Positions 16,002 through 23,902 of a stretch of 64,000 nucleotides of DNA are shown here, in pieces. The translations under genes and the position numbers were made by a program. Origin of the DNA: Candidatus Jorgensenbacteria bacterium (lineage in GTDB: Bacteria > Patescibacteriota > Minisyncoccia > UBA6257 > GWB1-50-10); NCBI GenBank assembly GCA_030648515.1, contig JAUSHK010000005.1:48383-112382 (forward strand), in the 5' to 3' direction. How positions within the stretch are numbered: the first letter of the stretch is position 1; every line of letters begins with the position of its first letter. The notes under the pieces were generated by a model that was given only the letters and a program-made list of their open reading frames with translations, searched no databases and had not been told where the DNA came from.

Positions 16002-16412
16002 CTAAATGACTTTGTGTAAATCTCCATTAATAACCTCAACACCCATACCAATCAATTCGTCTTTGAAATTAGATTCAGGAATTGGATTATATAAATATGC
16101 CTTTTTCCCAGAATCAAATGCTCTAAAAATTTCTAGAAAAGTAGCCCCTCCAATATAATTCGGCTGTCCATTTTTTTCAAAATTTAATACTAAAACACAA
16201 TCATTTGCGTCTACTTTCTCTTTTTGCAACCGAATCATATTCCCTTTCCATTTCCTATGTTCCTCAATCCCTAAATTTTTAATTTCTTCCTCCTTCATTG
16301 GCTCATCATAACTATTTGGAACAGTTATGATGTGTCCCATAACCTCAAGTTCATTTTTGATCTTTGTAACATAACAATAGTTATGTTTACTTGCACAAAT
16401 AAGTATTTTCAT
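16002..16412 (-). CDS. Nucleoside 2-deoxyribosyltransferase-like protein
   Basis: KILICAS...DCVLVLN...YIGGATFLE; similar to 4384..4791; AT-rich. Confidence 0.65.
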   Translation of the reverse strand: MKILICASKHNYCYVTKIKNELEVMGHIITVPNSYDEPMKEEEIKNLGIEEHRKWKGNMIRLQKEKVDANDCVLVLNFEKNGQPNYIGGATFLEIFRAFDSGKKAYLYNPIPESNFKDELIGMGVEVINGDLHKVI

Positions 16413-16443
16413 AGATTGAATATGTTATGTATGAAATTAATTG

Positions 16444-16514
16444 CTGCGGGACAGGGATTCGAACCCCGATACCGTGCTCCAGAGGCACGAGTCCTACCAT
16501 TAGACGATCCCGCA
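16444..16514 (-). tRNA. tRNA-Gln(CTG), CCA not encoded
   Basis: TGCGGGA/TCCCGCA acceptor stem, CGTGC-CTCTGGA-GCACG anticodon arm, GTTCGAAT T-loop. Confidence 0.95.
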
Positions 16515-16760
16515 ATGATTCTCAATCTGCCTTATTATCGTTTCTTTTTCAATGCGACAATCCTTGACCTTATGTTCATATTCCCTTGCCTCCTTCTCCA
16601 ATTCAAATTTTCTCGTAAAAACTAGCTCAAAAGGTTTATAAGGTTTTGTCGATTTAACTCTACCACTATTATGCTCACAAAGTCTTTCGTCCAATCTATT
16701 GGTACTTCCTGTGTAATACCATTCTCTTTGTTTACTTTTTATAATATAAACATACCACAT
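16500..16760 (-). CDS. Stand-alone GIY-YIG nuclease (86 aa)
   Basis: MWYVYIIKS...YYTGST...RL.EHN.G...E..A...E; stop codon lies inside tRNA-Gln. Confidence 0.9.
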   Translation of the reverse strand: MWYVYIIKSKQREWYYTGSTNRLDERLCEHNSGRVKSTKPYKPFELVFTRKFELEKEAREYEHKVKDCRIEKETIIRQIENHCGIV

Positions 16761-16768
16761 GTTACAGA

Positions 16769-16808
16769 CTACCATTAGACCTGCCTGCGCAGGCAGGCGA
16801 TCCCGCAA
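16769..16808 (-). pseudogene. Duplicated 5' fragment of tRNA-Gln interrupted by an 18-bp palindrome
   Basis: TTGCGGGATCG[CCTGCCTGCGCAGGCAGG]TCTAATGGTAG; flanks identical to 16494-16515. Confidence 0.85.
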
Positions 16809-16853
16809 CATATAGAAATTAAACAGCAAAAACACTTAAAAATCAATAAAAAC

Positions 16854-16881
16854 AGCCCTTAGCATGAAAGCGCTAAGGGCT
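16854..16881 (-). terminator. Intrinsic terminator
   Basis: AGCCCTTAGC/GCTAAGGGCT stem followed by T tract on minus strand. Confidence 0.8.
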
Positions 16882-16901
16882 ATGTGATACGAGATATAAA
16901 A

Positions 16902-17582
16902 CTATACTGCCTGAGAAACCGGCTCTTCTTCCAAAAGTGCCAAAAGATCTTTCGCTTCGGCTATTTTGCTTTTTATATCTATTTCCGGGAATTTCTCCCT
17001 CGCCCATTCGGTGGCGAATTTTAAGTTGCCAAGGAACAAGTCTTGCATTTTTAGAATTTCGCACGGAGTCTTTCCCCATTCGGCGGCGAGACCTAAAACC
17101 ACTTGTTGTAACCACACAGGATCAAGCACTTGGCTCAAATCCGCGTCACGGATAATTTTGAGCGTTAGGCCCAACTGATCGGATGGAGTTTGGTAGGGAA
17201 ATTCAGTGGCCATGATAATCTCTATGATTTTAGGAAGCTCCTCAATATCTTCGTCCATAATATGCTCTTTTAGCGCTACGATTGCCCTCTCTATATTCAC
17301 TGAATCCGGGCCCGATTTACCCGTGTGATTAAAATCGTGGAACATTGCCGCAATAAAAATATTTCGGACTTCTCTCTTTGATAATGTCCCGTAGAAAATA
17401 CACGCTTGATAGCATAACCACAAAACGTGAAGCATGTGCCTCCCGTTGTGATATGGATTAAGAAGATTCCGTGCGTCGTAAAAAATTGCTCGGAAATAAG
17501 GTCTTAAGTCGCCCTCGAAGAGAAGTGCATCGTTTCTGATTATTCCAGCAATTCCTCCGCGAACTTTTGATTCTTGTTCCAT
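16902..17582 (-). CDS. HD-domain phosphohydrolase
   Basis: PYHN..H, MFHD, RDADL; AAGGAGG SD. Confidence 0.85.
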   Translation of the reverse strand: MEQESKVRGGIAGIIRNDALLFEGDLRPYFRAIFYDARNLLNPYHNGRHMLHVLWLCYQACIFYGTLSKREVRNIFIAAMFHDFNHTGKSGPDSVNIERAIVALKEHIMDEDIEELPKIIEIIMATEFPYQTPSDQLGLTLKIIRDADLSQVLDPVWLQQVVLGLAAEWGKTPCEILKMQDLFLGNLKFATEWAREKFPEIDIKSKIAEAKDLLALLEEEPVSQAV

Positions 17583-17648
17583 ATACAATTCCCTCCTTGT
17601 TAAGATTTACTTTATCCACATTAATTACGATTTAAGAGTTCTACCGGT

Positions 17649-23836: not shown

Positions 23837-23902
23837 GAGCGTGATACCAGAATCGGACTGGCGCCACTGCCTACCAGCAGGCAGGTCGACCTTGGTCACG
23901 CC
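23837..23902 (-). pseudogene. Decayed tRNA-Gly-like remnant with palindromic insertion
   Basis: GCGTGA/TCACGC acceptor, CCAAGGTCGA half anticodon arm, GCCAG-TCCGATT-CTGGT T arm; D arm missing; CCTGCCTGCTGGTAGGCAG insert. Confidence 0.65.

Follow-up and report, generated by a model that had tools for sequence, protein, structure and literature searches.

A mobile cassette that targets tRNA genes very probably occupies the minus strand of the DNA stretch analysed here (the window, 64,000 nucleotides), in which a 293-bp unit between two repeats of the start of tRNA-Gln holds a GIY-YIG open reading frame (ORF) as its sole gene, as judged from the sequence and Pfam. The explanation preferred for this locus, with a probability of roughly 0.6, is a selfish, integrase-free cassette whose nuclease would nick hairpin or D-arm DNA and which would then be copied into place by host repair. 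The layout described in the initial annotation, namely a promoter-like site, a copy of the tRNA start, 8 nucleotides, an 86-aa ORF, and an intact tRNA, was confirmed feature by feature (Table 1).

Table 1. Features of the cassette locus (positions in the window)
Feature	Positions	Strand	Details or evidence
Terminator-like hairpin and T run, 13-pair stem; ends the upstream gene and is not part of the cassette	16852..16883	-	
Weak sigma70-like site	16818..16846	-	TTGATT 16846-16841, 17-nt spacer, TTTAAT 16823-16818
Dead copy, tRNA-Gln nt -1 to 10	16798..16808	-	
Perfect palindrome of 18 bp, at the nt 10/11 junction in the dead copy's D arm; dispersed mini-element	16780..16797	.	
Dead copy, tRNA-Gln nt 11-21	16769..16779	-	
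8-nt spacer before the start codon	16761..16768	-	
86-aa single-domain GIY-YIG gene, ATG at 16760	16500..16760	-	Pfam, alignment, model
Overlap of ORF and tRNA: final four codons and TAA stop (16502-16500) are tRNA nt 1-15	16500..16514	-	
tRNA-Gln(CTG), intact, anticodon CUG, CCA not encoded	16443..16514	-	ARAGORN; Rfam 57.4 bits

The claimed 22-bp direct repeat is present, but it becomes exact only once the inserted palindrome is removed from the 40-bp upstream copy, referred to here as the dead copy. Similarly, the promoter-like site keeps both hexamers and their spacing in a second genome of the same genus (G001), whose neighbouring genes are different, but it is weak, and a consensus promoter scan of positions 16300–17000 returned no sites, this one lying below the threshold; it is likely the tRNA promoter belonging to the host. 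ARAGORN and Rfam found the tRNA-Gln uninterrupted and no intron core RNA, so that a group I intron is not indicated, and across the whole 64-kb window, Rfam returned only four tRNAs above the cut-off and no intron or other RNA family. The folding of the dead copy, whether as DNA or as RNA, is unexceptional overall (z −1.3 to −2.3). The neighbouring genes are, downstream, a 136-aa ORF without a Pfam match (16002–16412) and, upstream, one of 228 aa whose phosphodiesterase match is weak and below the cut-off (16902–17588); a variant of the palindrome lies at 23867–23885, about 30 nt 3' of tRNA-Gly(CCC).

Homologs of the nuclease occur in 178 of the 251 genomes of the order, with up to nine per genome. 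Across 130 loci, taken from the 131 best of 479 matches and including the window's own locus, the start of a same-strand tRNA falls within −137 to +60 nt of the stop codon in 72, whereas in the host genome (G000; 5 contigs, 690,800 bases), 4 of 572 ORFs adjoin a same-strand tRNA, which serves as the baseline. A further 16 loci have another tRNA or a tmRNA within 150 nt, 37 have none, and five are cut off; at all 88 loci that adjoin a tRNA or tmRNA, gene and RNA lie on the same strand. A lack of tRNA association among the homologs, which had been named in advance as evidence against the reading, is contradicted by these counts, and the central claim of an integrase-free, tRNA-targeting unit, with an intact tRNA behind it and placed under the tRNA promoter region, is supported. 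The survey that had been proposed, for short GIY-YIG genes abutting tRNAs with duplicated ends, recovered the identical layout with diverged proteins at 16 further loci from other genomes and metagenomes.

At least three layouts were seen among the homologs, i.e., a dead 5' copy followed by the ORF and the tRNA; a tRNA followed by a hairpin, the ORF, and a duplicated tRNA 3' end; and genes that lie apart from tRNAs between inverted repeats. The first of these extends beyond the order as well (e.g., L178, Winogradskyella record). The second, at L039, L052, L063, L069, and L112, is the mirror arrangement of tRNA, hairpin, nuclease gene, hairpin, and duplicated tRNA 3' end, and the third prevails in a 31-member branch whose members mostly lie in intergenic DNA, bounded by short inverted repeats at their ends, and resemble minimal insertion sequences (L040, L053, L061, L067, L089, L145, and others). 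Apparent targets other than tRNA were also encountered: at L051, what is duplicated is the 3' end of a probable protein-coding gene, and by eye, L119 adjoins an apparent 16S rRNA sequence and L157 the apparent start of an RNase P RNA. At L158, a cassette with a 20-bp palindrome precedes a tRNA-Tyr that holds a 245-nt intron. The host genome contains two GIY-YIG genes of this family, the second of which (C3:41614-42060) lies directly 5' of tRNA-Leu(GAG) and is preceded by a copy of nt 1–35 of that tRNA, which hairpin insertions of three different kinds interrupt.

On either side of the palindrome, the sequence of the dead copy tracks that of the local tRNA. In the 17 loci that have both the palindrome and a downstream tRNA (L161 was removed as a duplicate, and L009 falls outside the Gln clade described below), nt 1–10 of the dead copy equal those of the local tRNA in 16, with eight variants among them, as compared with a shuffled mean of 2.9 and none of 100,000 shuffles reaching 16. 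Position 16 of the D loop, on the other side of the palindrome, agrees in 14 of the 17 (shuffled mean 8.0, nominal p 0.001), and the exact tract of the copy ends anywhere between nt 15 and nt 28. Because the agreement persists although synonymous sites in the nuclease gene are saturated, the copy has likely been renewed from the host tRNA; a neutral relic of such age would be decayed, from which we infer that the dead copy is either renewed or selected. A test of acceptor-stem pairing at 104 loci, meant to show which of the two tRNA starts is host-derived, gave 57 with equal pairing, 14 in which the downstream start pairs better, two in which the upstream start does, and 31 without a detectable copy, counts that favour no mechanism.

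A FastTree phylogeny built from 249 loci, which after removal of broken, short, and duplicate sequences left 205 distinct intact proteins, sorts by tRNA and hairpin, with Leu or Ser accompanied by a 20-bp palindrome and Glu, Cys, and Ala by other hairpins; the inverted-repeat genes form a clade as well. A C-terminal motif, which we take to be that of cd10448, is absent from all 205 proteins and serves as a lead only. Ssn nucleases, discussed below, are recognised by assignment to this CDD family or by a blastp match to N. meningitidis SsnA with E<1e-10. The protein of the window is one of 19 members of a clade (support 0.99), each of which stands beside a tRNA-Gln sequence; the 18-bp palindrome lies within 160 nt upstream in 16 of them, and in the remaining three, it is nested (L035) or placed in a neighbouring tRNA-Gln copy (L200, L162). 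Nuclease clades are paired with particular tRNAs and hairpins. The Gln clade is found in 5 of the 251 genomes, spread over four host families, and in G001, the same tRNA and promoter are occupied by a broken nuclease of 38% identity with a different hairpin. Together with the patchy, multi-copy distribution of the homologs and with tandem cassette copies at L124, these last observations argue for mobility. No syntenic empty allele was found, the genes that flank the locus differing even within the genus, and four runs (X1–X4) contained no convincing joint that skips the element; X2–X4 cover only short parts of the stretch, and the joints listed there, which have sides of fewer than 30 letters, likely come from tRNAs of other organisms. 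No RNA run was listed with the stretch, which has no bearing on whether the gene is expressed. At L032, L033, L201, and L008, the D-loop AGGA carried over in the copy stands 2–7 nt before the start codon, where, from its position in the sequence, it could be usable as a ribosome-binding site; the window locus lacks an AGGA ahead of its start codon.

The initial annotation had further proposed that tRNA maturation, by removing the stop codon of the ORF (tRNA nt 13–15), acts as a built-in limit on nuclease expression. The same idea had already been put forward for the segB gene of phage T4, whose stop tRNA processing was hypothesised to remove (PMC2330249). This arrangement is not conserved: the stop lies within the tRNA at five of the 17 loci, three of them at the same TAA, and the other 12 genes end 1–9 nt before +1. 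In the survey of the order, the stop is inside the tRNA at 31 of 72 loci, and all 11 Gln or Glu loci that are in frame with the tRNA stop use it, which leans toward the proposal; in the close clade, the in-frame L003, L202, and L204 keep stops of their own, and the majority of loci are out of frame. A selected, conserved design was therefore rejected, and the position of the stop is incidental, even though RNase P cleavage at the window locus would leave a stop-less message, likely to be handled by tmRNA.

The initial annotation gave the palindrome too little weight, for it is a dispersed mini-element with 11 exact copies in the host genome. It is not a product of chance, since its pattern found no match in 100 shuffles of the window. 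A loose form of the pattern is present in 145 of the 251 genomes (a reversed control gave 0–1 per genome) and the exact 18-mer in 23, including all five with a Gln-clade gene, which leaves 18 that have the exact palindrome and not the gene. Among 71 exact sites, made up of 60 in 59 regions and the 11 of the host genome (three in known cassettes and 19 unlisted ones were left out), about 10 lie by eye within copies of a tRNA D arm and about 61 are dispersed elsewhere, and the hairpin is consequently not specific to tRNAs. Target duplication is absent from 51 of the 71 and amounts to one base in 14, and a G precedes the palindrome on its 5' side in 54, against a background of 39%, a weak flank rule only.

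The same palindrome also occurs in ORF-less duplications of tRNA 5' ends, i.e., at two tRNA-Thr genes of the host genome, at tRNA-Cys (L317), and at an Ala-like gene (L278), as well as in spare tRNA-Gln genes of full length, at nt 10/11 (L200 and L162); these occurrences favour copying from the local target and insertion of the hairpin directed to the D arm. In both tRNA-Thr modules, the 18-bp palindrome separates nt 11 from nt 12; the spacer is 3 nt in that of tRNA-Thr(CGT) (C5:37058-37176) and about 100 nt in that of tRNA-Thr(TGT) (C5:47443-47643), and a profile search of the two returned no GIY-YIG remnants. A degenerate tRNA-like cluster of the host genome (C3:196514-196900) includes one gene with the palindrome in its D arm, and the anticodon of that gene is TTA once the palindrome is omitted. 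Palindromes inside palindromes were noted at L207, L035, and L198, which points to repeated insertion at one spot.

If the locus is a selfish cassette that moves by nicking and repair, its protein would be a structure-selective nickase, comparable to Slx1 or SsnA, that attacks single-stranded or cruciform DNA while DNA is taken up or replicated; the host genome has ComEC and no match to a Y1 transposase, both counted in favour of this explanation. Repair would then switch template between the host tRNA gene and a donor that bears the cassette, so as to leave the start of the host tRNA under its promoter with the hairpin inside and rebuild the full tRNA downstream. Survival would be limited to events that rebuild a working tRNA, and the junction would for this reason be fixed at +1. 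The same enzymes may also spread the hairpin alone, thereby giving rise to the ORF-less duplications of tRNA starts and to the dispersed copies. Against nicking at the D arm counts the intact host tRNA gene, which stands beside the nuclease and is left uncut. A broader and rather doubtful proposal is that such loci form a distinct class of ~300-bp elements, in which a GIY-YIG nickase of 80–90 aa might recognise a clade-specific hairpin and tRNA arm, insert itself into tRNA genes while copying the host tRNA start, without an integrase, transposase, or reverse transcriptase, and seed the hairpin as a non-autonomous element.

A classical homing endonuclease, the framing that the initial annotation had adopted, fits poorly and appears unlikely. 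The catalytic residues of the family are retained: the 86-aa ORF matches the Pfam GIY-YIG model PF01541 (E 2.9e-16, 60 bits against a cut-off of 22.6), and Y5, Y16, G18, R26, and E62 are invariant in a family alignment of 25 sequences, as expected of the GIY-YIG superfamily. Homing would also agree with the tie of each clade to one tRNA, with the fixed position of the palindrome in the dead copy, and with the precedent of SegB, which cuts tRNA genes and sits among them (PMC2330249). However, the protein is a bare GIY-YIG domain without a DNA-binding region fused to it, and it scores 13.5 bits against the intron-endonuclease model TIGR01453, below the cut-off of 56. Its predicted structure (pLDDT 85.9) consists of one domain with three strands and helices, in which the tRNA-encoded C-terminal residues are unstructured, nor are these conserved. 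A fold search with this model placed UPF0213 BH0048, Slx1-Slx4, and HIGLE above I-TevI, which ranked 14th; sequence-based structure matches were limited to 1ZG2 (E 2.6e-9) and 1YWL, and the ESM Atlas returned generic GIY-YIG clusters only. The modelled fold is accordingly nearer to Slx1/UPF0213 than to I-TevI. Moreover, the tRNA that should serve as the target is intact directly beside the gene, although as regards the rule that a gene-bearing allele lacks an intact preferred target, T4 also keeps weaker SegB sites (PMC2330249). The flanks upstream of +1 vary among loci, and no relative was found in viruses or phages, where none of seven candidate stretches in viral contigs held up, no phage matched, and the junction pattern occurred 0 times.

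Alternatively, the locus could harbour two unrelated guests, in which case a REP-like palindrome moved by another enzyme (e.g., Y1/RAYT) would gather in the neutral dead copy, while the cassette inserts by its own route with target duplication; this too is improbable. The majority of palindromes do lie away from tRNAs, and nested or multiple hairpins accumulate in dead copies (L207, L035, L198, and the tRNA-Leu of the host genome). A residual link to Y1 transposase, which is present in 67 of the 251 genomes, can be seen for the exact 18-mer, found among genomes without a Gln-clade gene in 10 of 66 with Y1 against 8 of 180 without it (p 0.01, overstated, like all p-values here, because the genomes are kin). 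By contrast, the same palindrome keeps the same position throughout a clade with saturated synonymous sites, and other clades carry hairpins of their own. The loose palindrome follows the GIY-YIG gene, occurring in 128 of 178 genomes with it and in 17 of 73 without it, and does so even where Y1 is missing (85 of 125 against 13 of 59, odds ratio 7.5); Y1 has no significant effect on the loose palindrome once GIY-YIG is fixed.

A domesticated YhbQ/Slx1-like repair nuclease, co-transcribed with tRNAs, for which the dead copy would be a regulatory leader and RNase P cleavage a means of control, is a highly improbable explanation. The ORF is evidently under purifying selection, as suggested by pN of 0.20–0.30 against pS of 0.64–0.98, with synonymous sites saturated, between this gene and 18 clade members; the predicted fold is Slx1-like, the gene always lies on the tRNA strand, and the host genome has a tmRNA as well as a gene resembling RNase P RNA that scores under the family cut-off. 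A domesticated gene is at odds with the patchy and multi-copy distribution, with broken copies and ORF-less remnants (L004, L005, L006), with the fact that one site carries different nucleases in members of a single genus, and with the unconserved stop position. The RNase P RNA-like gene (C5:37210-37741), situated immediately upstream of the tRNA-Thr(CGT) module, is 532 nt long where the model has 367 positions, which together with its score below the cut-off suggests insertions. An assembly artefact or a chance overlap, a concern that had been raised about the duplication, can practically be dismissed, for although the full stretch was found in one run only (X1), which may be the source sample and whose assembly graph is separate while its data are perhaps not independent, the element forms a 308-nt contig there at a depth of 18.2, even with its flanks at 21.8 and 19.4, and the layout recurs with diverged proteins at the 16 other loci.

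Bacteria with small genomes commonly carry short, unexplained genes labelled as GIY-YIG nuclease family proteins, as the presence of such genes in 178 of the 251 genomes illustrates. If they are self-mobile, tRNA-targeting cassettes, one model would cover the short nuclease genes, the dead tRNA fragments, and the palindrome; the finding on Ssn nucleases would be extended to another branch of the superfamily, and one could test whether domains of the Slx1 type behave as molecular parasites. Each clade would supply an enzyme of 80–90 aa with a predicted DNA substrate, which can be assayed directly and might be useful as a compact nickase, and if the distinct element class is real, its dozens of clades would constitute a natural collection of very small nickases with site specificity. 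The open literature, subscription journals being largely uncovered, yielded no account of GIY-YIG cassettes that duplicate tRNA 5' ends or of this palindrome, and the cassette is a real, recurrent, and apparently unpublished variant of selfish GIY-YIG elements.

Several known systems share parts of this arrangement. Integrase-driven islands insert into tRNA genes between attL and attR sites, and a duplicated piece, usually the 3' end, rebuilds the gene; likewise, the 22-bp repeat restores the tRNA here, but the 293-bp unit holds no recombinase, the 5' end is duplicated, and the tract length is variable. REP/RAYT and IS200/IS605 hairpin systems comprise short dispersed palindromes that insert mostly without target duplication, as the palindromes do here, whereas no match to a Y1 transposase was found in the host genome, and the partner is a GIY-YIG protein. 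Slx1/UPF0213 (YhbQ-like) nucleases, which give the best sequence and fold matches of the cassette protein, are known or presumed repair enzymes. Parasitism by Slx1-like domains is raised only as an open question in a phylogenomic survey (PMC1564403). T4 SegB is similar in that a GIY-YIG gene lies in a tRNA transcript, tRNA genes are targeted, and removal of the stop by processing has been proposed; its cleavage site, of 27 bp in double-stranded DNA, lies in the T arm at the 3' ends of tRNAs, it brings about conversion of a region between phages, and the paper nowhere contains "duplicat" (PMC2330249). The present cassette differs in its bacterial chromosome, its 86-aa protein, its use of the D arm and 5' end, and its duplication plus hairpin.

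By analogy, the system working most like this cassette would be that of the Ssn single-stranded DNA nucleases with NTS/SRM hairpins (Chenal et al. 2025, PMC11893778), yet the SRM feature fails, the motif being found in the 500-bp flanks of one of 249 loci, the window locus not among them, and once in the whole host genome. Ssn repeats flank the gene, as opposed to one hairpin on one side here, and the fixed tRNA target with its duplication sets the cassette apart; the word "tRNA" is absent from the main text of the Ssn paper, which discusses REP/RAYT and IS200/IS605 hairpin systems. Like the Ssn nucleases, the protein is small and single-domain (86 aa, within the Ssn limit of <150 aa) and has next to it a palindromic repeat of which further copies are scattered over the genome, and the Ssn authors compare their own NTS-ssnA-NTS arrangement to an insertion sequence (PMC11893778).
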